The notes beneath the pieces are model-generated. The model did no database searches. It was not told the DNA's origin and saw only the letters and a program-made list of their open reading frames with translations. Made by a program: the position numbers and the translations under genes. Positions 7,297 through 60,437 of a stretch of 64,000 nucleotides of DNA are shown one piece after another. The DNA is from a bacterium (GTDB lineage Bacteria; Hinthialibacterota; Hinthialibacteria; Hinthialibacterales; Hinthialibacteraceae), in contig CAXXMV010000006.1 of NCBI GenBank assembly GCA_963662285.2, positions 1,792,001 through 1,856,000 of the forward strand, read 5' to 3'. Each line of letters starts with the position of its first letter. Positions within the stretch are counted from its first letter, which is position 1.

Positions 7297-7326
7297 TAAC
7301 AACTTTTAGGCTGCATAAAACTCAAT

Positions 7327-7791
7327 ATGCTAAAAATCAAACCGCATCATTTCATAGACATCATAACCAAATTCGGAGACGGCTGCGAGAAATTTAATCC
7401 GCATCCTTATGGTCATGCGGTGCATAGTGTGGCAGAGGAAATTCTGGCTGACCGGGATATTGATATTTGCATTGAACTGGGGATTGATGATATCTGCCTT
7501 CCTTGCAGCCATAATATTGATGGGCGCTGTGATGATATAATCGACGTTTCGTTCAGGCCGCAGGCGCCTGAGTCTAAGCATGACTATAACCTGATCATTG
7601 ATATGCGTTGGTGCGAGCGGCTTGGGCTACTGCAGGATGAGCAGTTAACCGCCCGTGAGTTTTGTTTACGCATCCGGGATTACGCTGGCGACATTGAAGA
7701 TATTTACCGGGAAACTCCTGTAGATCGAACATTGGAAAGACAGGGTAAAATGCGGAAGGGAATTGCGAAGTTTTTGGAACAAGCGAAGTAG
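7327..7791 (+). CDS. DUF1284-like His/Cys protein
   Basis: N-terminal KIKPHH, DDICLPC, C-terminal Cys; resembles DUF1284. Confidence 0.55.
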   Translation: MLKIKPHHFIDIITKFGDGCEKFNPHPYGHAVHSVAEEILADRDIDICIELGIDDICLPCSHNIDGRCDDIIDVSFRPQAPESKHDYNLIIDMRWCERLGLLQDEQLTAREFCLRIRDYAGDIEDIYRETPVDRTLERQGKMRKGIAKFLEQAK

Positions 7792-7840
7792 GATGTGATG
7801 GCGACTCAGGCTCAGTTATACCGCCGTTGCCGCCGTCATC
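7781..7840 (+). repeat. Degenerate long-loop GTAG REP
   Basis: AAGCGAAGTAGGATG followed by an imperfect stem TGATGGCGAC…GCCGCCGTCA; the first 12 nt are identical to 8621-8632. Confidence 0.45.
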
Positions 7841-7893
7841 GATATAGCATTTTGATGCTGCTTAATAAAAGGTTAATAATTAGAAGAGGCCTT

Positions 7894-7918
7894 ATGTGTA
7901 ACACATTGGTTTACACAT
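7894..7918. promoter_or_regulatory. Probable HigA operator (inverted repeat)
   Basis: ATGTGTAA-N9-TTACACAT immediately upstream of higB. Confidence 0.6.
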
Positions 7919-7943
7919 TAAGCGATTTGTGGTAACATTAAAT

Positions 7944-8219
7944 ATGATTAAGAGTTTCAGTCATATAGGTTTAAAGACACTCTTTTTGAAGGGAATCAGT
8001 TCTAAAGTGGATGCCTCTCTTCAACAACGATGTCTTATTCGTCTGGATGCAATAGACCAAGCTGAAAAATTGGCAGAACTCAACATTCCTGGATTTGATT
8101 TTCATGGTTTAGGGGGGAAACCAAAACGGTACTGCATCCATGTTAATGGTCCATGGTGTATTACTTTTGAGTGGATCGAGGGGGATGCATGGAGAGTGGA
8201 TTTAGAGCAATATCATTAG
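7944..8219 (+). CDS. higB: HigB-like RelE/ParE family toxin
   Basis: MIKSF.H.GLK, PG..FH.L.G, IHVNGPWCITFEW, VDLEQYH terminus. Confidence 0.92.
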   Translation: MIKSFSHIGLKTLFLKGISSKVDASLQQRCLIRLDAIDQAEKLAELNIPGFDFHGLGGKPKRYCIHVNGPWCITFEWIEGDAWRVDLEQYH

Positions 8220-8228
8220 GAGAACAAA

Positions 8229-8552
8229 ATGGTGGAAGAGTACTTGATTAATAAACGTCCAACCCGTGAGCCGACGCATCCGGGCGTAATTTTACGGGAC
8301 GATGTACTTCCTGCACTTGAATTGAGCGTAAGCGAAGCGGCCCGTCAACTTAGAGTATCCAGACAGACTTTACACCGTATTATGAAAGGCTCTCATGCCA
8401 TCTCTCCAGATATGGCAGTTAGATTGGGGAAATTTTGTGGAAATGGTCCAGGACTCTGGCTTCGTATGCAAATCAATTATGACTTATGGCATGCAGAAAA
8501 TGCTTTGAGAAAAGAAGTCAATATGATTCCTGCCCACACAATTAATGATTAA
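8229..8552 (+). CDS. higA: HigA antitoxin (Xre HTH)
   Basis: PTHPG.IL, LSVSEAA..L.VSRQTL, MA.RL.K.G.P..WL.MQ..YDL; toxin-first order. Confidence 0.92.
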   Translation: MVEEYLINKRPTREPTHPGVILRDDVLPALELSVSEAARQLRVSRQTLHRIMKGSHAISPDMAVRLGKFCGNGPGLWLRMQINYDLWHAENALRKEVNMIPAHTIND

Positions 8553-8608
8553 TTTATAAAAATAATCTCATTATAACTTTCGCCCATTGCCAACCGCCGG
8601 AGAATTTA

Positions 8609-8749
8609 TATTCAGCGAAGAAGCGAAGTAGGGACAAAGCAATTTAAACTCTCTCTATTTTAAGCACCTTGGCAGCGTTTCCCATCAAAACCACTGATTA
8701 GTTCAACACGATGGGACACGCTGGCGCTTTGTCCCATCCAACTTCGCTA
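8609..8749. repeat. REPIN (inverted REP doublet), GTAG family A
   Basis: Ends AGCGAAGTAGG / CCAACTTCGCT; hairpins GGGACAAAGC…GCGTTTCCCATC and GATGGGACACGC…GCTTTGTCCCATC; the left part matches 42984-43078. Confidence 0.75.
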
Positions 8750-8781
8750 ACGGCTTTGTCAGGTGCAAACTCTTGTTAGAT
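8745..8781 (-). other. Truncated attC site (cassette 4)
   Basis: Minus strand ATCTAAC AAGAGTTTGCACCTGACAAAGCC GTTAGCG (37 bp). R'' contains the gene's TAA; only the left arm is recognisable; it abuts the REPIN. Confidence 0.6.
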
Positions 8782-9247
8782 GATGCTACCGCCTTTTGGC
8801 ATCTTCAGTGCCTTCTTCAAATTCTTCGAATTGTCCGGCTTTTTGTGCATTACGAGTTTGACGTAGTACGGCATTTTCGCCTCTGTTAAGTAGGCGGTGA
8901 CCTTATAGAGCGTATCGCTAAGAAACACTTCAGCTTGACCCTCGCGAGTTGGGTAGCCGTTTTTCGATGGGCGTATTTTGCCAAATGGAATAACAGTTCC
9001 GGCAGCCTTCAGATAAGTATTCAAACCGTCCGGCAGCGGCAGACCGTTCTGCGAATATTCATAAAATGGATTCCCCGCTTTGCTCTTCTTTTGGTGCACC
9101 GCGATACGGAAAGGATCAGAGTACCGCGCACTTTCGATATGATTTTCGTCGAGAAACTCCGTCCCCAAGTCGATAAGACGAACAGGGTCTCCTGAAGAGT
9201 GCAAAAACTCGACAACTACCGATTCTGGTGCTTCGGATATTAAACAT
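8776..9247 (-). CDS. Cassette 4 hypothetical protein (start uncertain)
   Basis: ORF 8776..9204 is open upstream as LISEAPESVVVEF. The nearest ATG (9247, after AGGGGG) is one base out of frame. The stop lies inside attC R''. Confidence 0.65.
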
Positions 9248-9275
9248 ACCCCCTACTTGTAATTGACTCACATTC

Positions 9276-9347
9276 ACCTAACGACCAAGCTCACCGGCGG
9301 CAATGGAGCGCAGCGGAATTGCCGTCCGGTGGAGCGCCTTGTTAGCC
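9276..9347 (-). other. attC site (72 bp, cassette 3)
   Basis: Minus strand GGCTAAC AAGGCGCTCCACCGGACGGCAAT…ATTGCCGCCGGTGAGCTTGGTC GTTAGGT: imperfect palindrome with extrahelical bases. Confidence 0.92.
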
Positions 9348-10592
9348 ACTCTTTTTTCGCCTCATCAGATTTCGAACCTTTTGCCACCAAGTAATCTTTC
9401 GTGGCGCAGGAGACTCCGAAAACGATACTGCACTGGTGTTGTATGCAAAGCGATACTTGCATTTTGGACAAGTTGCGATCAAGTCACCCGAATTCTCGGG
9501 TAGCCTTAACTTTGTACCATCTTGTGGGCATACCACAATATTGAACATCGCTGATGACGGAGGCGGAAAACTGTGCCCATTTCGGGAGAGATGGTGGCTG
9601 ATCTGTCTGGCGTGCTTGAGAAATCCATCTGCTTCTTGTGAGATTGAACGGACTCTCTCGCTTAGGCGATCAATCTCGAACTCGATCTTTATTGCCTGAA
9701 GAAACCGCAGGGCCGGGTCTGCTGTGGTCTCATTGATCATCGCAACAGCGTTCTGGAGCAGCGTGCCAATCTTCTTGTGTTCAGCCTTGAGAAATGCGTT
9801 GACGGTCTCGCAAAAGCTTCTGCGGACGTATGTCAGGTGCTTGTCCAAGTCTGCCATAATGTATTGTGTCTGAGTTACCTCACCCTTGAACCCATCGATA
9901 CTCCTCCGTGAAGCCTCTCTCTGGTGAAAGTTAGGTGAATAATGATGTCCGTATGATGAGTTGCAGGTTCTAAATGCGTGTGTCGCTTCAGCATTAAGAC
10001 CCTGCATGAAGTCTGAAGAAGGAATCTTTCGCATTGCACAGACCAAGTTATAGACGAAGGCGAGTTGGTCACGGTCGAGGTAGCCAGCCGTCATGGCCTC
10101 TGTGATGGTTCGTGTGCCGTTGGGTATGGTTTCATACCTTACGTTTTCAGTCCTGCAACCGTTGAGCATGATCTTACCGAAGCCAAGAAAGACACTGGTG
10201 ATATCCGTTAGGATTTCGTTGTCGATCTCTATGGCAGAGCGGATTCCGTTGCTTTGAAGCCACTTGTGGCATATTTCATGACACAGCGTAGCACCAACAG
10301 AGTCAGGGAATTTCATCATTTCGGGGTCGATTTCGACGAAAACACTTGTCCCCTCGGTAGAGAGGTCAATATGGCCTCCGACCTTTTCCTTCTGCTTCGC
10401 TATTGCGACAATAAAAGTATAGTCGGTCAGCCCGATGAACTCAGCAATATCTTTAGCTGTGCCCTGAATAGACAAATGATCATGAAATGGTGTCGTAAAT
10501 GGTTGCATGACCCGGTACTGCACGCTGGCACCGGTCTTCTGCTCCAGCAGGATCAACTTGTCAACAAAGGCTTCTACAAATCGTTCGGACAT
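9342..10592 (-). CDS. Cassette 3: HExxH (ImmA/IrrE-like) metallopeptidase domain + helical region + C-terminal zinc ribbon
   Basis: ATLCHEICHKWL…NEILTD…LGFG; CPQD…CPKC at the C terminus; stop codon inside attC R''. Confidence 0.7.
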   Translation of the reverse strand: MSERFVEAFVDKLILLEQKTGASVQYRVMQPFTTPFHDHLSIQGTAKDIAEFIGLTDYTFIVAIAKQKEKVGGHIDLSTEGTSVFVEIDPEMMKFPDSVGATLCHEICHKWLQSNGIRSAIEIDNEILTDITSVFLGFGKIMLNGCRTENVRYETIPNGTRTITEAMTAGYLDRDQLAFVYNLVCAMRKIPSSDFMQGLNAEATHAFRTCNSSYGHHYSPNFHQREASRRSIDGFKGEVTQTQYIMADLDKHLTYVRRSFCETVNAFLKAEHKKIGTLLQNAVAMINETTADPALRFLQAIKIEFEIDRLSERVRSISQEADGFLKHARQISHHLSRNGHSFPPPSSAMFNIVVCPQDGTKLRLPENSGDLIATCPKCKYRFAYNTSAVSFSESPAPRKITWWQKVRNLMRRKKSG

Positions 10593-10614
10593 CGTCGTGT
10601 GATTCTTTCCATGT

Positions 10615-10678
10615 GGCTAACGCTTGGGCTCAGGGGCGTGCGGCGAAGCGGAGCGTCCCTTGGAGCCCATTGTTATGC
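10615..10678 (-). other. attC site (64 bp, cassette 2)
   Basis: Minus strand GCATAAC AATGGGCTCCAAGGGACGC…GCACGCCCCTGAGCCCAAGC GTTAGCC. Confidence 0.9.
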
Positions 10679-10680
10679 GA

Positions 10681-11337
10681 TTAATGCCCAAAGGAGGCGA
10701 TGTCGAATTGTGCAGCGAAACCTTTTGCTAGTGATTTAGGATCGACACCATCTCTGAACGCTCGCTTAAAGGGCTCGTGTTCCATAAAATCAATGAGGCT
10801 ATTCCCTTCCTCATTTGCTTCCAGTTGCGGATTTTCCTTACCTGCTTCGATCTTGAAAACCCGGTACCACTCTTCCCACGTAGAATGCTCAGATGACGCC
10901 ATGATCTCATCGATTTCATCTGCGATGGGTGATTCCGAAAACTCTTTGGCTATCTCTGCGAAGATAGACATAGATGCCTCAAGGAGTTGGTGATCAAGGC
11001 TGTTGAGTGTATATAGCCTGCCATTAGTTTCTAGTTCTGAGAGTATATTGCCGAGAGATAAGACAAGAGCATTTCTATTCAGATCGCCATCCTCGAACAG
11101 CTCAATTCCATTTGCCAGCGCAGAAGCTGCCACCGTTATTTTGTGCGGGCGCTGACCGAATTTTCCATCAAAAACATCTGGCTTTGAGTCCCACACAACC
11201 TCTACCAATTTGTTTGCGAACTTCGCTGGATCTAGGTCTAAAAGCCCTACCTTAGCTTGATGCTCAAGTAAGTTCTGAACGACAACAGCTGACTCGCTCT
11301 TTTTATATGTTCTCTTGATTCCGCTAAAGAGACCCAT
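10681..11337 (-). CDS. Cassette 2 hypothetical alpha-helical protein
   Basis: 218 aa ORF with AAGGAG RBS, filling the space between two attC sites. Confidence 0.8.
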   Translation of the reverse strand: MGLFSGIKRTYKKSESAVVVQNLLEHQAKVGLLDLDPAKFANKLVEVVWDSKPDVFDGKFGQRPHKITVAASALANGIELFEDGDLNRNALVLSLGNILSELETNGRLYTLNSLDHQLLEASMSIFAEIAKEFSESPIADEIDEIMASSEHSTWEEWYRVFKIEAGKENPQLEANEEGNSLIDFMEHEPFKRAFRDGVDPKSLAKGFAAQFDIASFGH

Positions 11338-11359
11338 GATTACTCCTTCTGGCTTTTAC

Positions 11360-11410
11360 GCCTAACGATGCTCCTCAGTAGCGGCGTCTCATTGCAGGGG
11401 CTGGTTATGA
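11360..11410 (-). other. Short attC site (51 bp, cassette 1)
   Basis: Minus strand TCATAAC CAGCCCCTGCAATGAG ACGCCG CTACTGAGGAGCATC GTTAGGC. Confidence 0.75.
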
Positions 11411-11905
11411 TTTATTAATGATACCTAGAGCTTCTTCTCCGATAGCCGAGGTATCTTTAAAGAGAGCAAGCAACTCGGTATAATGCCCAATTAGCTGTTC
11501 CCTGGATATCTCATCAATATTCAAATTTTCGATTTGTTTGATGTCCTCTAGGATTGCGAAACATTGTGTATAAAATGTTGCTATCAATTTAGGCAACGGA
11601 CTTGACAGGCTTCCTAGTTTGTCTACGTTGCTCTTGTATACGCTGAAGTAGTCGTAAGTGACATGGAAATAGAACATAATCATCAACTCGAAATCAGGCT
11701 TCTGCATTTTAGCAATTAGCTGTTCGAGATGTTCAACGTACTGTCGTTTTTTGACGATTTCTATTATTGCTTCAATTTCTCCTGCAAAACCACCAGCAAG
11801 GCTTTTTCTATTCATCTTCTGTTGAGACGTTAACGCGATATAATTAGCAATGATACCACCAGCTATTGCAAGCACACCACCAATCAATACTCCGACTATT
11901 TCCAT
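11405..11905 (-). CDS. Cassette 1 hypothetical protein with N-terminal TM helix
   Basis: IVGVLIGGVLAIAGGIIA N-terminal anchor; stop in attC R''. Confidence 0.8.
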   Translation of the reverse strand: MEIVGVLIGGVLAIAGGIIANYIALTSQQKMNRKSLAGGFAGEIEAIIEIVKKRQYVEHLEQLIAKMQKPDFELMIMFYFHVTYDYFSVYKSNVDKLGSLSSPLPKLIATFYTQCFAILEDIKQIENLNIDEISREQLIGHYTELLALFKDTSAIGEEALGIINKS

Positions 11906-11929
11906 AAGATCATCCCTTTAGGTACTGGA

Positions 11930-11956
11930 TCATAACAATTTATTCAATGGTTTCCG
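11930..11956 (-). other. attI-like site
   Basis: Minus strand CGGAAACC ATTGAAT AAATT GTTATGA. GTTATGA is the exact complement of cassette-1 R'' TCATAAC, and there is no attC hairpin upstream. Confidence 0.65.
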
Positions 11957-11957
11957 A

Positions 11958-11986
11958 ACTTTATGCCATATTGTTTTGATCGTCAA
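11958..11986 (-). promoter_or_regulatory. Pc-like sigma70 promoter for the cassette array
   Basis: Minus strand TTGACG-N17-TAAAGT directly upstream of the attI-like site. Confidence 0.6.
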
Positions 11987-12396
11987 TACAATTTCGTATA
12001 ATTTTTTGAAATATTCTAACCGTTATTTATTACAAATTAACTTTAATCCGGAAAACTATTGTTTATGAAAATGTATCACTCCACATTAACGCCCAGCATA
12101 TACCAGAATACGTTTTCAGCGATGATTCGGGTGTTGTAGTCTCTTGCTTTTTTTGCTTTGCCTGAGAGGGTATTGGGATCAGCGACTACAAGCATATCCA
12201 ATTTTTTTATTACAGATTTTTACAATAAGCCCATCTTACCTTTTATAATCCCACACCCAATCAATAAAATATAGGGCATTGCTGTATAAATATCATACTA
12301 CTAACTAATAAGTAGACATGTTTATGTTGTTGTTGCCAAAAAACAGCATAGGTGATGGAGTTGAGAATTTGGAAGATGGAAAGATATAGGTAATCC

Positions 12397-12431
12397 CGAT
12401 GGGACACGCTGGCGCTTTGTCCCATCCTACG
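12397..12431 (-). repeat. GTAG-family REP (family A)
   Basis: CGATGGGACACGCTGGCGCTTTGTCCCATCCTACG; 31 nt identical to 8709-8739. Confidence 0.85.
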
Positions 12432-12497
12432 ATTTATGAAATTTTCGAGGATTTTAATCTTTTATCTGAAAGACCTAAGCCTGGGGAATTTGAAGTT

Positions 12498-12570
12498 CAG
12501 GCGCGGAGGGATTTGAACCCCCAACCTGCTAATTTGGAGTCAGCTGCTCTGCCAATTGAGCCACGCGCCT
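12498..12570 (-). tRNA. trnW: tRNA-Trp (CCA)
   Basis: AGGCGCG acceptor stem, GCTC/GAGC D arm, GCTGA-CTCCAAA-TTAGC anticodon arm, GGTTCAAATCC T arm; 3' CCA not encoded. Confidence 0.95.
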
Positions 12571-12847
12571 ATAAACAGGGATTACTATAACTTTACTGGG
12601 TTTGGTGTCAAGTACTATTCTGGCATATATTTAACATATCTTTATACAATCCAGCTGATCTCACAATATTTCTTATAACAATCCGTCCGAAATATCTATC
12701 TTGGAATATATCTTTTATCGCTCTAATCAATCTTGTAAAAACCAAAAAAATCATGCTTCTTCCGTGCTGCTTGGTTTATAAATTTTAGTTTATATAATTG
12801 TGTGATTATAATTTCTCACTTAATTTCAAAACTCTGGATATTTATCA

Positions 12848-14314
12848 ATGACAGAACCATATCAATTGACTGCCTGTGAAGCGGCGGAAGCGTTGCAAAA
12901 CGGCTCGCTATCCTCATCAGAGTTGACTCGTTCAGTGCTGGACCGGATCGAAAGCCTTGATGCCAAAGTAAAAGCTTTTCAGACAGTTATGCCCGAAAAA
13001 GCGTTAACCATGGCCCAAGAGATCGATGAGCGACGCACCAAGGGGGAAGAGTTGCATCCCTGGGCGGGCGTACCCATCGCGCTCAAGGATAATTTCTGCC
13101 TCAAAGAGGCGCCATGCACCTGTTCATCCAAAATTCTGGAAACTTTCATCCCGCCATATAACGCTACGGTGGTTGATAAAATGCTGGCCGCCGGGCTGAT
13201 TCCCATAGGCAAGACCAATCTGGATGAATTCGCCATGGGGTCATCGACCGAAAACTCAGCCTATAAAACTACCGGCAATCCCTGGGACCTGGAGCGGGTT
13301 CCCGGAGGTTCGAGCGGCGGCTCGGCGGCGGCGGTTATTGCTGATGAGACCATACTTGCGGTTGGTTCTGATACGGGCGGCTCAATACGTCAACCAGCCG
13401 CTTTCTGTTCGATTACCGGAATGAAACCGACTTATGGGCGCATATCCCGTTATGGTCTGGTGGCCTTCGCATCATCGCTGGATCAGATAGGCCCCATGAC
13501 CAAAGATGTGCGTGATGCAGCTGGGTTATTAGAGATCATGTCCGGCGTCGATCCGCATGATTCAACTTCTATAGATCAACCAGTGCCGCATTATCTGAAT
13601 GAACTTACGGGAGATGTAAAGGGACTGAAAATCGGCATCCCCAAGGAATATTCGATTGACGGCATGAATCCTGAGATCAAAGAGGTTTGGGACAACGCAG
13701 CCAAATTTTATGAAGAGCAGGGAGCTGAATGCCGTGAAATTTCCTTGCCGCATACTGAATATGCTATCGCTACTTACTATATGATCAGCACGGCGGAAGC
13801 ATCCAGCAATCTGGCGCGCTATGATGGCGTCGTCTATGGTTACCGCTCTGAAGGCCCACATGATAATATTGTAGATATGTACTGCAAATCGCGCAGCGAA
13901 GGTTTTGGCGCAGAAGTCAAGCGCCGCATCATGTTGGGAACCTATGTGCTCAGCGCCGGATTTTACGACGCCTATTACCGCCGCGCTCAGCGGGTAAGAA
14001 CTTTGATCAAGAACGATTTTGACGCCGCATTCAAAGAAGTAGATATAGTATTATGTCCGGCTACGCCGTCTACTCCATTTAAGGCGGGAGAGAAAACTGG
14101 CGATCCTCTTGAAATGTACCTTTCCGATGTATTTACGGCGCCATTGAACTTGGCCGGGCTTCCGGGAATCGTTATTCCCGGTGGTTTCAGCAGCGATGGT
14201 CTGCCTATTTCGATTCAGATGATAGGACCAGCCTTACAAGAGAGTCTACTGCTGAATACTGCCCATTGTTATCAGTTAGGTACGGATCATCACCATAAAA
14301 GACCAACGTTATAA
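12848..14314 (+). CDS. gatA: Asp/Glu-tRNA amidotransferase subunit A
   Basis: GKTNLDEFAMGSSTENS, PGGSSGGSAAAV, GSDTGGSIRQPA, EVKRRIMLGTY. Confidence 0.97.
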   Translation: MTEPYQLTACEAAEALQNGSLSSSELTRSVLDRIESLDAKVKAFQTVMPEKALTMAQEIDERRTKGEELHPWAGVPIALKDNFCLKEAPCTCSSKILETFIPPYNATVVDKMLAAGLIPIGKTNLDEFAMGSSTENSAYKTTGNPWDLERVPGGSSGGSAAAVIADETILAVGSDTGGSIRQPAAFCSITGMKPTYGRISRYGLVAFASSLDQIGPMTKDVRDAAGLLEIMSGVDPHDSTSIDQPVPHYLNELTGDVKGLKIGIPKEYSIDGMNPEIKEVWDNAAKFYEEQGAECREISLPHTEYAIATYYMISTAEASSNLARYDGVVYGYRSEGPHDNIVDMYCKSRSEGFGAEVKRRIMLGTYVLSAGFYDAYYRRAQRVRTLIKNDFDAAFKEVDIVLCPATPSTPFKAGEKTGDPLEMYLSDVFTAPLNLAGLPGIVIPGGFSSDGLPISIQMIGPALQESLLLNTAHCYQLGTDHHHKRPTL

Positions 14315-42983: not shown

Positions 42984-43078
42984 TATTCAGGGAAGTAGGA
43001 TGGGACAAAGCAATTGAAATTCTCTTCTTTTCAACTACCCTGGCAGCGTGTCCCATCAAAACCACTCATGTTCCAACA
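42984..43078 (+). repeat. Long-loop GTAG REP (family A)
   Basis: TATTCAGGGAAGTAGGATGGGACAAAGC…GCGTGTCCCATCAAAACCACT, homologous to 8609-8708. Confidence 0.8.
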
Positions 43079-57833: not shown

Positions 57834-60437
57834 TTAATGCAGCATCCAACTATTAACAGAAACAGCGCTTCCATCGAACTGTGGATTATTGAATAATCCT
57901 TGCGATGTGGCGCCGGATGTATGCGAAGTAACCGCAATACCCAAATAAATGGGATCAGTCATGGCAACTTCATATTCATACTGCAACCTGTCTTCACCGT
58001 CATAGACATACCAGAGAGTAAATAGATCGTCTTCACGGGTTATTTTGATTGTACCGCCACGGGTTAGATCTGATTCGGCTGGATTCGTAATACCCGCTGA
58101 ATCGGGATCATAATCCGGATTCCAAACATCCACGTTTGTCTCCGAACCATCCGTCGAGGCCGCATCCACGCCATCGGAGTCACGCCATTGCAACAACAAC
58201 GCCTGATCCGAACTGCGGATCGCGCCGATTACATAGGCCGAAGAAGCAGTCAATTCCTGGCGAACCATGATACCCATTTTCTGCCAATCATTGCTGCTGG
58301 GATTCGTGCCATAGGCTCCGATGTACGGATCGTCTATGCTGAACGTAAAATCGCCGGATACGCGCATCCATAGGTAATGGAAATTATCCGCTGTACCCCA
58401 GATATCCGCTCCGCTGCCGACAACCTGGTAAGCATCTCCATTAATATTGATATTACCTGCTGCGCCAGGATCACCGATATCATCATGTCCCTGGAAAATA
58501 CCCATATTTTCAACTTCAACCGGAAGAGAGGTAAGTCCCGTTTCGCCGGTATATTCATTGCCATCATCATAGGTTCCGCTTAGTTCCACAAAACTTTCCG
58601 CGAAATCAGATGGGACATCCACGGTAAATGATAACGCAACAGTCCCTTCCGCACCGGCGAGTTCCCATTTAATGGCTGAACCATCGTCTGTAGCGGTTCC
58701 CGCATTGGCGGTCAAACCGGATATGGTCGTACCAGCCTGATACTTCTCAATGATTGTGGCTTTGCCGGGAGTTCCTTCACGAATATCCACGGTAATTTCT
58801 ACATCCACGGAACTGCCCGTTTTTACAGATTCGGCCTCAATTGTTTTGATAACCTGCATCGGATAAAGAGTAATTTCCAAATTATCATACTCACCCACTG
58901 AATATAAACCATCATCATGCGATGTGATTGACAGGCCGACATAAACTGGATCGGTCAACTGAATGGTTTGTTCGGAACTCAAAACCCACTCGCCATCATC
59001 GCCTATGTAATAGGCTTTGACATTTTGACCGGAACGCACGAGACGGACATCGCCTATCTCATAGTCACTGGCGCCGACATTATATGACGTTGCATTTTGT
59101 TCTGTTCGCCATTGCGCATCATACTGCCCGTCAAAGGCGCGGGTCAGAGAATGCATGTGAGGCGAACCGGCGGTCAGGTTGTCACGCACCATCAAACCGG
59201 CTTTGGACCATTCGCTTGTAGCATCGTCGTTGTAGCTCCAAACATTGGCTTGAATACTGAAAGCGCCAGACAGTTTCTTGTAAACGAAATGGAACTCATC
59301 AGCATTGCCCCAAATATCGGCGCCGCTTCCTGTAGTCCAATACCGGTTTAAGTCTTCTATATATTCAGCATCGCCAGCTGCTCCAACATCACCGACATCC
59401 AGATGATGATCGAAAATTCCGATTGGTTGAGGAGCGGTTAATGAACTATCCCCGAAAATGGAGGCATCGTCCACCATACCAGAGAACAAAACATCTTCGG
59501 TAGTTCCATCAGGAGGAGTAACAACATACGAAACCGCTTGGGCTTCGTTCAAATTCCATGTGATGGTTCCATCGCTTTCCGAACCGCCATCTGAAATATC
59601 GCTCACAATCCATCCAGCAGGAGGGGTTTCTGTAACAGTCAATGCGCCAGTACCGCCGCCCACAGTGATGTATACGGTGATCGGGTCGCCCGAGATATAC
59701 ACGGGATCATCCTGAGAGAACGTCCGCGCGCCCGCCGCTGTCACGGTTTCAGAAAACTGAACATCCGTTACGGTGGCTTCGGCCAGTAATTCGTTATCCA
59801 CGTGGTTGGTAATGACTAAACCAAAGGCGATAGAATCCTCGAAGGTCATCTCCTGTCCATGCGAGAAAACCCAGTTGGTTCCATCCAGGGAATATTCACT
59901 GATCACAAAACCGGTATCCGCCAAACGGGAAACCCGCAGCCAGACTCCATCACCAGGATCGCCAATAGAAACGCCATTAGCCTGAATTTCCACATTGTTA
60001 GAACTGCCGCTTTCAGCAATCCGCCACTGCGCGTCAATCCGATCGCCCAGGTTGGCGTCATCCGAGCCGGAGCGCAATTCAGTCCAATAATGACGCGATG
60101 TGGAAGAACCACCGTCTTCGCGCATCATAACGCCAACTTTGGCCCATTCGTTATCGCCGCCGCGGTCGTTCCATTTAACTTTTCCACTTAGCGAGCATGT
60201 GCCGGTTTTCTCTGTATACACAAAGAAACCCTCGTCTTGAGTGCCCCAAATGTCGTCTCCATTTCCCTGTATGGTATATTCATCACCGGAAACAGAAACG
60301 CCGCCTTCAGCTTTATAATCAGTAACCATTCCCCAATCAGCAGTCTGATCGAATATGCCATACTGAGCAAAAGCTTGACTCCCTGCCATTAGAATCACAA
60401 ATGACAGCCCTAGAAAAATGTGTATTTTTCTTCTCAT
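57834..60437 (-). CDS. Secreted multi-domain protein with three DUF1349/ConA-like repeats and two Ig-like spacers
   Basis: Signal peptide; three units GIF…D.G…GxGxDIWG..D.F.F/Y…K.G.M.R…QWR…Y.G.A.T(S/N)H. Confidence 0.8.
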   Translation of the reverse strand: MRRKIHIFLGLSFVILMAGSQAFAQYGIFDQTADWGMVTDYKAEGGVSVSGDEYTIQGNGDDIWGTQDEGFFVYTEKTGTCSLSGKVKWNDRGGDNEWAKVGVMMREDGGSSTSRHYWTELRSGSDDANLGDRIDAQWRIAESGSSNNVEIQANGVSIGDPGDGVWLRVSRLADTGFVISEYSLDGTNWVFSHGQEMTFEDSIAFGLVITNHVDNELLAEATVTDVQFSETVTAAGARTFSQDDPVYISGDPITVYITVGGGTGALTVTETPPAGWIVSDISDGGSESDGTITWNLNEAQAVSYVVTPPDGTTEDVLFSGMVDDASIFGDSSLTAPQPIGIFDHHLDVGDVGAAGDAEYIEDLNRYWTTGSGADIWGNADEFHFVYKKLSGAFSIQANVWSYNDDATSEWSKAGLMVRDNLTAGSPHMHSLTRAFDGQYDAQWRTEQNATSYNVGASDYEIGDVRLVRSGQNVKAYYIGDDGEWVLSSEQTIQLTDPVYVGLSITSHDDGLYSVGEYDNLEITLYPMQVIKTIEAESVKTGSSVDVEITVDIREGTPGKATIIEKYQAGTTISGLTANAGTATDDGSAIKWELAGAEGTVALSFTVDVPSDFAESFVELSGTYDDGNEYTGETGLTSLPVEVENMGIFQGHDDIGDPGAAGNININGDAYQVVGSGADIWGTADNFHYLWMRVSGDFTFSIDDPYIGAYGTNPSSNDWQKMGIMVRQELTASSAYVIGAIRSSDQALLLQWRDSDGVDAASTDGSETNVDVWNPDYDPDSAGITNPAESDLTRGGTIKITREDDLFTLWYVYDGEDRLQYEYEVAMTDPIYLGIAVTSHTSGATSQGLFNNPQFDGSAVSVNSWMLH

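Follow-up and report, generated by a model that had tools for sequence, protein, structure and literature searches.

How does an array of gene cassettes come to lie beside an integron attachment site and a cassette promoter (Pc), with no integrase gene at its head and an identical repetitive extragenic palindromic (REP) hairpin on either side? The locus that raises this question lies at 8745-12071, on the minus strand, of a 64,000-nucleotide stretch of DNA (hereafter the window; G000:C6:1792001-1856000) from a bacterial genome of 7.29 Mb (44% G+C, 8 contigs, 92.5% complete), between the toxin-antitoxin genes higBA and the tRNA-Trp gene and gatA. The original prediction was that a platform keeping attI and Pc, served in trans by an integrase encoded elsewhere, may have been delivered, delimited or trimmed by REP-directed recombination. 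Comparison with relatives and with the rest of the genome points to a different history, which we consider the probable one: the locus is a decayed chromosomal integron, that is, a cluster of attC sites lacking an integrase (CALIN), which retains attI and Pc, and the flanking REPs belong to a generic family.

The array consists of four minus-strand open reading frames (ORFs), each followed by a site of the attC type, RYYYAAC...GTTRRRY (Table 1). The sites were scored with two covariance models. The training set of the first, R1, held attC2 and attC3 of the window and not attC1; because R1 contained these window sites, a second model, R2, was trained on 14 attC sites from relatives only, with no window sequences. 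The structures of both models were written by hand, RNAalifold having returned the R stem only from the first MAFFT alignment. In the R2 alignment 85.6% of the cells are paired and 12 of the 21 pairs vary on both sides, compared with 21-42% paired in slid controls. Four attC-like sites had been predicted, the last of them truncated. When the whole window was searched, the relatives-only model accepted rather than rejected three of these, all on the minus strand, and the fourth is the stump it was said to be, with no R2 match at E ≤ 5 and a fold no better than that of shuffled sequences. The three R2 sites are spaced by 1.3 and 0.7 kb, within the definition of a CALIN, for which two attC sites suffice if the distance between them does not exceed 4 kb. 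One other R2 match in the window, at 58378-58446 on the plus strand, is weak (15.5 bits, E 0.043) and lies far from the array.

Sites attC2 and attC3 are related in sequence and fold as bulged hairpins, with a half-pairing (duplex energy) that was equalled by none of 300 shuffles. The bulged hairpin is missing from attC1, as judged by pairing, and from attC4, of which a remnant is left: the ORF4 stop codon falls in its R'' box (ATCTAAC), its 5' half is similar to the attC consensus, it lacks inner stems, and the R'-like GTTAGCG is shared with the tail of a REP. Both attC1 and attC4 appear to be decaying. Elsewhere in the genome, attC matches were found outside any array at C1:772067-772141 (55.4 bits) and C1:180741-180807 (28.4 bits; R2), the former between ORFs of 78 aa and 163 aa, just downstream of a gene for an Xer-type recombinase. 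A loose sequence pattern of attC2 and attC3 gave 98 matches in the genome, of which only the two window sites looked genuine.

The cassettes themselves have the expected organisation as read from the sequence: the stop codon lies within the R'' box in three of the four, and over its opening six bases each cassette agrees with the R'' box it carries, at 6/6, 5/6, 6/6 and 5/6 positions. None of the four proteins belongs to a significant family in Pfam, PADLOC or NCBIfam. In the protein of cassette 3 a HEICH (HExxH-like) string and a C-terminal CxxD...CPKC string were noted by eye; its family has at least 246 members of ~416 aa, unannotated, without Pfam domains and mostly encoded on short contigs, and a 99% identical protein is found on 7 contigs from several sources. 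At the nucleotide level, window positions 9321-10622 are 99.4% identical (8 differences) to contigs of ~1430 nt from three runs, X1, X2 and X3, which come from three marine or seawater studies and which, being contigs, give no evidence of absence for the parts they leave uncovered. These contigs diverge from the window directly after 10622, which is the crossover in the R' box of attC2 to within 2 nt. The left end of the match is uninformative, since it lies within attC3, which occurs in these data as a repeat in many contexts. On this evidence cassette 3 is a discrete mobile cassette that was recently shared, since homology ends at an attC crossover and near-identical copies occur elsewhere. 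The whole stretch is present in one pair of public runs from a single study, which probably represents the source, and about a quarter of it in at least 8 others, X1-X3 among them; runs with small shares do not enter the comparison.

The evidence that the array was built at an integron platform comes from its other end. Window positions 7300-13400 were compared with 40 relatives, all of other genera, of which 19 are of the same family. Positions 11926-12071 gave 27 listed matches in 9 of the same-family genomes (70-91% identity), and 13 loci with 15 copies were fetched, of which 14 copies were aligned with the window. Near-full-length copies are 71-82% identical to the window element, across genera. 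In the alignment, the conserved block has an abrupt start at 11934-11936 (AAC; GTT when read on the cassette strand) and extends as far as ATGAAAA, at 12071, with no conservation on the cassette side of 11934. Based on sequence, this abrupt boundary at GTT reads as the signature of an attI crossover, placed at 11936/11935 (minus strand ...AAATTG|TTATGA). The attI-like site of the original prediction is therefore borne out by homology whose boundary falls exactly at the crossover. Model R1 found attC matches on the cassette side, in the cassette orientation, in 10 of the 13 relatives' platform loci; L031, L033 and L040 had no R1 match at E ≤ 5, and L036 and L041 had matches on the other side too, which fits tandem arrays.

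Within the element the conserved features are a palindrome (~11976-11986; TTGACnGTCAA in the relatives), a TATAAT box and two TTGTTTAT repeats, followed by the ATG. The Pc-like promoter predicted earlier was recovered, and both of its hexamers lie in conserved columns; it resembles a sigma-70 promoter and is predicted to drive the cassettes. The TATAAT box, on the opposite strand, is likely to be the -10 box of the former intI promoter.

The nature of the lost integrase can be traced through the relatives. In these the ATG opens an ORF reading MKKLNQELIHTYSEQLTNH..., which continues MKKLNQELIHTYSEQL... where the window stops, and which has weak, sub-threshold matches to the SAM-like integrase domain PF13495. 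The sole longer homologue of this ORF in 5.8 billion proteins is P0001, whose core scores 149.8 bits against the integron-integrase profile (profile positions 2-135) and is 39% identical to the intact IntI of a same-family genome, G019. A full HMMER search returned many single-stretch relatives of 415-452 aa. Six intact relatives (415-583 aa) were scanned and all six are above the TIGR02249 cut-off, with 290-428 bits; the profile begins at residue 113-134 in P0011, P0013, P0014, P0016 and P0035 (415-452 aa) and at residue 272 in P0002 (583 aa). These proteins appear to form a sub-lineage of integron integrases, distinguished by ~110-130 additional N-terminal residues that make up a weakly SAM-like domain. 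Because the relatives' ORF leads via P0001 to proteins that pass TIGR02249, the window element is assigned, on sequence comparison, to this lineage as its attI/promoter region.

In the window itself nothing of intI is left beyond ATGAAAA, in agreement with the earlier observation that no intI occupies the place; unrelated DNA follows, and no plus-strand ORF of 40 aa or more lies between 12071 and 12397. A 41-aa minus-strand ORF at 12076-12201 was considered as a BRCT C-terminus and rejected, since it had no Pfam match even at E ≤ 10. The integrase supposed to serve the platform in trans was not found by profile or by tblastn in the 92.5% complete genome: the top-scoring gene with TIGR02249 is a 315-aa Xer-type gene, which reaches 73.6 bits where the cut-off is 265, and tblastn with P0001 gave nothing at E < 1.

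Table 1 Features of the cassette array, its two ends and its neighbours, in window coordinates.
Feature	Position	Strand	Description
Cassette 1 ORF	11405-11905	-	166 aa, hydrophobic N-terminus
attC1	11360-11410	-	51 nt, degenerate; R2 22.2 bits, E 2e-4; R1 19.5 bits
Cassette 2 ORF	10681-11337	-	218 aa; sub-threshold PADLOC matches only, E 0.005-0.007
attC2	10615-10678	-	64 nt; R2 45.1 bits, E 2.4e-12; fold z -2.24
Cassette 3 ORF	9342-10592	-	416 aa
attC3	9276-9347	-	72 nt, canonical; R2 91.1 bits, E 2.6e-28; fold z -2.71
Cassette 4 ORF	8776-9204	-	142 aa
attC4 remnant	8745-8781	-	37 nt; R1 with filters off 11.5 bits, E 0.19
attI and divergent promoter region	11934-12064		Homology to 14 relatives' copies
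Pc-like promoter	11986->11958	-	TTGACG-17-TAAAGT, 9/12 consensus matches; faces attI and the cassettes
TATAAT box	11997-12002	+	In conserved columns; not listed by the consensus scan, no good -35
intI trace	12065-12071	+	ATGAAAA, start codon and 4 nt; homology to relatives stops here
AT-rich filler	12072-12396		325 nt; no intI similarity, no match in 40 relatives
REP-C, long-loop variant	8622-8695	+	AGCGAAGTAG, GGACAAAGC, ~32-nt loop, GCGTTTCCCATC, AAAACCAC
Left REP-A	8709-8749	-	Hairpin 8710-8738; fold -9.4 kcal/mol, z -2.85
Right REP-A	12397-12431	-	GTAG head 12428-12431; 70 nt from the tRNA-Trp 3' end
HigB-like toxin and HTH antitoxin (HigA)	7929-8552	+	Pfam; just beyond the REPIN at the array end
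tRNA-Trp (CCA)	12497-12571	-	Sole Rfam match in the region
gatA	12848-14314		Pfam

The REPs on either side of the array were placed in the context of the genome. The window has two exact copies of a 31-nt REP string, 8709-8739 and 12397-12427, on the plus strand in both cases (none expected, 100 shuffles), so that the predicted identical pair in direct orientation, with the left copy inside an inverted doublet (REPIN) that abuts the truncated last attC, is real. The left copy is the right half of the doublet at 8622-8749 and the right copy is a singlet. Read on the minus strand, the left copy has the head GTTG, not GTAG, and its tail, AGCGAAG, overlaps the R' box of attC4. The two belong to REP-A, a family of GTAG-headed hairpins with 62 sites in the genome. 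The other half of the doublet, REP-C, has four other genome copies, at C2:1175329, C2:783677, C2:854551 and C6:1834984 (blastn, MAFFT); besides the doublet half, the window contains a long-loop REP-C copy at ~42984-43069. A second family, REP-B (GTAGGATGGGTC...GACCCATCAAAAAnCCACC), has ~25 copies, for example at C2:837842, C6:217028 and C8:857080, and REP-A and REP-B together occupy ~73 hairpin places.

REP-A sites are strongly clustered. A neighbour within 4 kb is found for 26 of the 62, where uniform placement gave 4.0 on average and never more than 14 (2000 trials), and 14 of the 16 adjacent pairs within 4 kb are in direct orientation. The cores are identical in two of these 16 pairs, the integron pair and one on contig C8. 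Six other clusters were mapped; the ORFs that surround them are 100-550 aa long and occupy both strands, and none of the six is a cassette array. The genes there are presumably sulfatase, flagellar and other housekeeping genes, which they resembled by eye, and model searches that each scored 150 first-look candidates found no attC at any of the six. Beside one REP cluster, at G000:C8:889413-889972, are three tandem units of ~178 bp with frames of 64-67 aa (VVFKGRK.TTLG.RALLPLAFEH...). The genome has six matches to Y1_Tnp and four genes resembling those for REP-associated tyrosine transposases (RAYTs); the ORFs at L012 and L015 score 107 and 104 bits on NF047646 (cut-off 80). No hairpin of the GTAG-GATGGG type lies within 1.5 kb of any of the six Y1_Tnp matches. 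The only contact of this kind is at G000:C7:4931-5110, where a degenerate REP-A-like site and a Y1_Tnp fragment overlap; the fragment is broken, its 66-aa frame holding one TAG.

These findings are consistent with the following course of events. An integron with an N-extended integrase would once have been resident at the locus, where its IntI would have joined cassettes at attI, giving four promoterless cassettes read from the Pc inside the attI-intI region. The intI gene would later have been deleted down to its first 7 nt, with AT-rich DNA now following. The array would be frozen because the genome has no other integron integrase: transcription from Pc would be possible, and excision and reshuffling would not, unless an integrase arrived from outside. 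The REPs would probably have been spread by the genome's RAYT genes, as a family that settles in nearby intergenic spaces in direct orientation; a doublet would have landed at or against the array end and one singlet behind tRNA-Trp, neither of them having delivered or mobilised the array.

Several points weigh against the reading as a decayed integron with incidental REPs. Between the flanking REPs identity is complete over 31 nt and 89% over 44 nt, and the exact 29-nt core occurs in only 5 of the 62 REP-A copies. The outer AGCGAAG of the REPIN starts right after the GTT of attC4, so that this REP boundary and the end of the array are at most a few bases apart. Site attC1 keeps its R'' and R' boxes while its inner stems are weak and its pairing is no better than that of shuffles. 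The covariance searches of the genome itself scored 150 of 1008 and 150 of 1987 first-look candidates, and an intI gene may lie in the missing 7.5%. The relatives available for comparison are all from other genera.

The possibility that the platform is still live, its attI and good attC sites being used by an integrase from the unassembled 7.5% or from a transient element, is unlikely. In its favour, attI, attC2 and attC3 are intact, cassette 3 is near-identical in other marine samples, which speaks for recent transfer, and orphan platforms are shared, in conserved form, by different genera, with 84-94% identity between copies over the initial ~92 nt of the intI remnant. Ongoing recombination, however, would not be expected to leave attC1 and attC4 decayed, no intI was found in the genome, and among the 19 same-family genomes an intI above the cut-off is present in one, G019 (484 bits), which gave no match to the platform's intI remnant. 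One attC of G019 is ~92% identical to attC3 of the window and its array adjoins the intact intI. On contig C28 of G019 (L038/L044) the attC sites share the strand of intI and lie downstream of its 3' end, which is an 'inverted' layout.

Very unlikely, in turn, is a module bounded by REPs, in which the 3.7-kb segment from REP to REP enters or leaves the site by recombination between REP copies, either homologous recombination of a circle or a RAYT reaction. The identical direct copies and their similar flanks are what such a module would show, RAYT genes passing NF047646 are present, and no relative examined has a platform at the tRNA-Trp/gatA place. In the relatives examined, platform loci and tRNA-Trp/gatA loci are on different contigs; tRNA-Trp adjoins gatA in 9 of 10 relatives' loci, and no synteny was found left of tRNA-Trp in any of the 40. 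The ends of the supposed module, however, are not symmetric, a doublet facing a singlet, and with no REP near a Y1_Tnp match a cognate RAYT cannot be named. The bracket is not a property of the integron because REP-A pairs directly elsewhere in the genome: 15 more pairs are no further than 4 kb apart, and what the six mapped clusters enclose is long ORFs, not cassettes. Delivery, delimitation or trimming of the array by REP-directed recombination is thus not supported against the background of a clustered, 62-copy family. Nor do the two attC matches on contig C1 (772067 and 180741), from searches that each scored 150 first-look candidates, have a REP-A within 4 kb (nearest 8.7 and 85 kb, respectively). 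The deletion of intI did not occur at a REP, because its endpoint, 12071, is 325 nt from the right copy.

Contigs of run X23, which resembles the source, contain a joint from 8738 to 12397, which skips 3658 nt and is the sole REP-to-REP joint seen. It was rejected as a recombination event because its short side, 30 letters, is the length of the shared repeat, as expected of an alignment or assembly effect. Further joints in X23 run from 8749 to 8708 (short side 41 letters, again the repeat) and from 9348 to 9278. None of these joints is evidence on circles or deletions since the contigs were built with 31-letter words and are not reads. In the literature, a search on integrons, RAYT and attC turned up no reported functional link; in Corneloup et al. 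2021 (PMC8266576) IntI/attC is likened to TnpA-REP/REP, both acting on folded single strands, as an analogy only.

The arrangement at the array end may be explained locally. The last attC may have received the REPIN as an insertion or lost its distal half to it, or the REPIN may have adjoined the original attI before the first cassette came. A split attC4, interrupted by the REPIN, was tried and rejected: the duplex energy of -9.4 kcal/mol compares with -7.4 ± 1.7 kcal/mol for shuffles, 66 of 500 of which equalled it, and the missing half of attC4 was not found on the far side of the REPIN. Colonisation of the array end by REPs is probably incidental. That the REP was instead a target, its tail (TTAGCGAAGTAG) offering a GTT with which IntI recombined an attC, is hardly credible: the junction does read CCGTT|AGCGAAGTTGGATGGG, several REP-A copies carry TTAGCGAAG before the hairpin, giving a GTTAGC-like core in some tails, and integrase-mediated insertion outside att sites is reported in a preprint (bioRxiv 10.1101/2022.09.11.507474), but a fresh product of attC and a secondary site would retain a whole attC whereas attC4 lacks its inner stems, and there is one junction with no second example, no other REP-A site lying beside an attC match.

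Upstream of higB is a palindrome, TGTGTAACACA...TTTACACA, and the covariance models found no attC around higBA. As in sedentary chromosomal integrons of the Vibrio type and of environmental bacteria, a toxin-antitoxin pair (HigB/HigA) stands at the array edge, the locus is chromosomal, stop codons fall inside R'' and attC2 and attC3 are related. It differs from these integrons in having four cassettes, no integrase and heterogeneous attC sites (51, 64 and 72 nt), and in that higBA is outside the last attC remnant, beyond the REPIN, with no flanking attC.

As a decayed integron, the locus shares with CALINs its attC sites at less than 4 kb spacing, the lack of an intI nearby or elsewhere in the genome and the unassigned functions of its cassettes. 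What sets it apart is that one can still recognise attI, the Pc region and, of intI, the first 7 nt; the lost integrase was apparently N-extended. Measured against a complete integron, an attI is present, as judged by sequence, and intI is missing. In integrons of the In0 type and others with an inactivated intI, the platform persists after loss of the integrase, and most of intI is usually kept as a pseudogene. The platform persists here too, whereas intI has been cut to 7 nt. Among the routes to a CALIN proposed by Cury et al. 2016 (PMC4889954) is the loss of intI; that paper gives intI pseudogenes as recognisable near only 15 of 279 CALINs. Likewise, the REPs resemble REP/REPIN-RAYT systems in their GTAG-headed intergenic palindromes, inverted doublets and RAYT genes, and differ from the classical REPtron in that no REP stands beside a RAYT gene.

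The platform is not confined to the window. Several of the 9 same-family genomes that have it carry more than one copy, and in two of them platforms stand in tandem, 1.35-1.85 kb apart. The loci are L029 (G014:C112 1-132 and 1846-1983), L033 (G001:C63), L030-L043, L052, L055, L056 and L061. None of the intI remnants beside them (15 copies, 13 loci) extends past residue 131 of P0001. The remnant ends 5-15 nt after the ATG in the window and four other copies, at 33-42 nt in two copies, at 88-105 nt in five, and at 196-232 nt in four distinct copies (L052 and L061 being one record). A protein search found remnants in 8 of the 19 same-family genomes, with a longest open frame of 116 aa, and a contig search with P0001 returned only the truncated platform L061, identical to the copy of G012, and a C-terminal match that is unrelated. 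In the platform-bearing genomes the N-extended lineage was not found with an intact integrase, and intact ones exist elsewhere. Between copies of different genera pS is low, at 0.11-0.72, with pN/pS ~0.4 over the first 31 codons, in samples that are small and not independent. REP-like hairpins lie 0.4-2.5 kb from 3 of the 13 relatives' platform loci (L054 duplicates L033), a count for which there is no background rate to compare.

It is doubtful, on this evidence, that integrase-less attI-Pc platforms are a maintained, perhaps propagating state in the family and not random wreckage; they may alternatively be the debris of a recently mobile integron lineage. For the locus itself, the decayed-integron reading would make it a clean example of the origin of a CALIN by loss of intI, traced through attI, Pc and the start codon to relatives, and would indicate that comparative alignment can pick out the attI of non-clinical integron lineages; the functional link proposed between REP/RAYT and the integron is removed for this locus. 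If the platforms are maintained, attI and Pc may be retained by selection, for expression and as a landing pad, and the costly integrase removed. If they are propagating, truncated platforms may be copied, for example by capture within arrays, and the REPs beside some of them could then be more than bystanders. Selection for orphan platforms, if true, would bear on why many genomes carry arrays without integrases.

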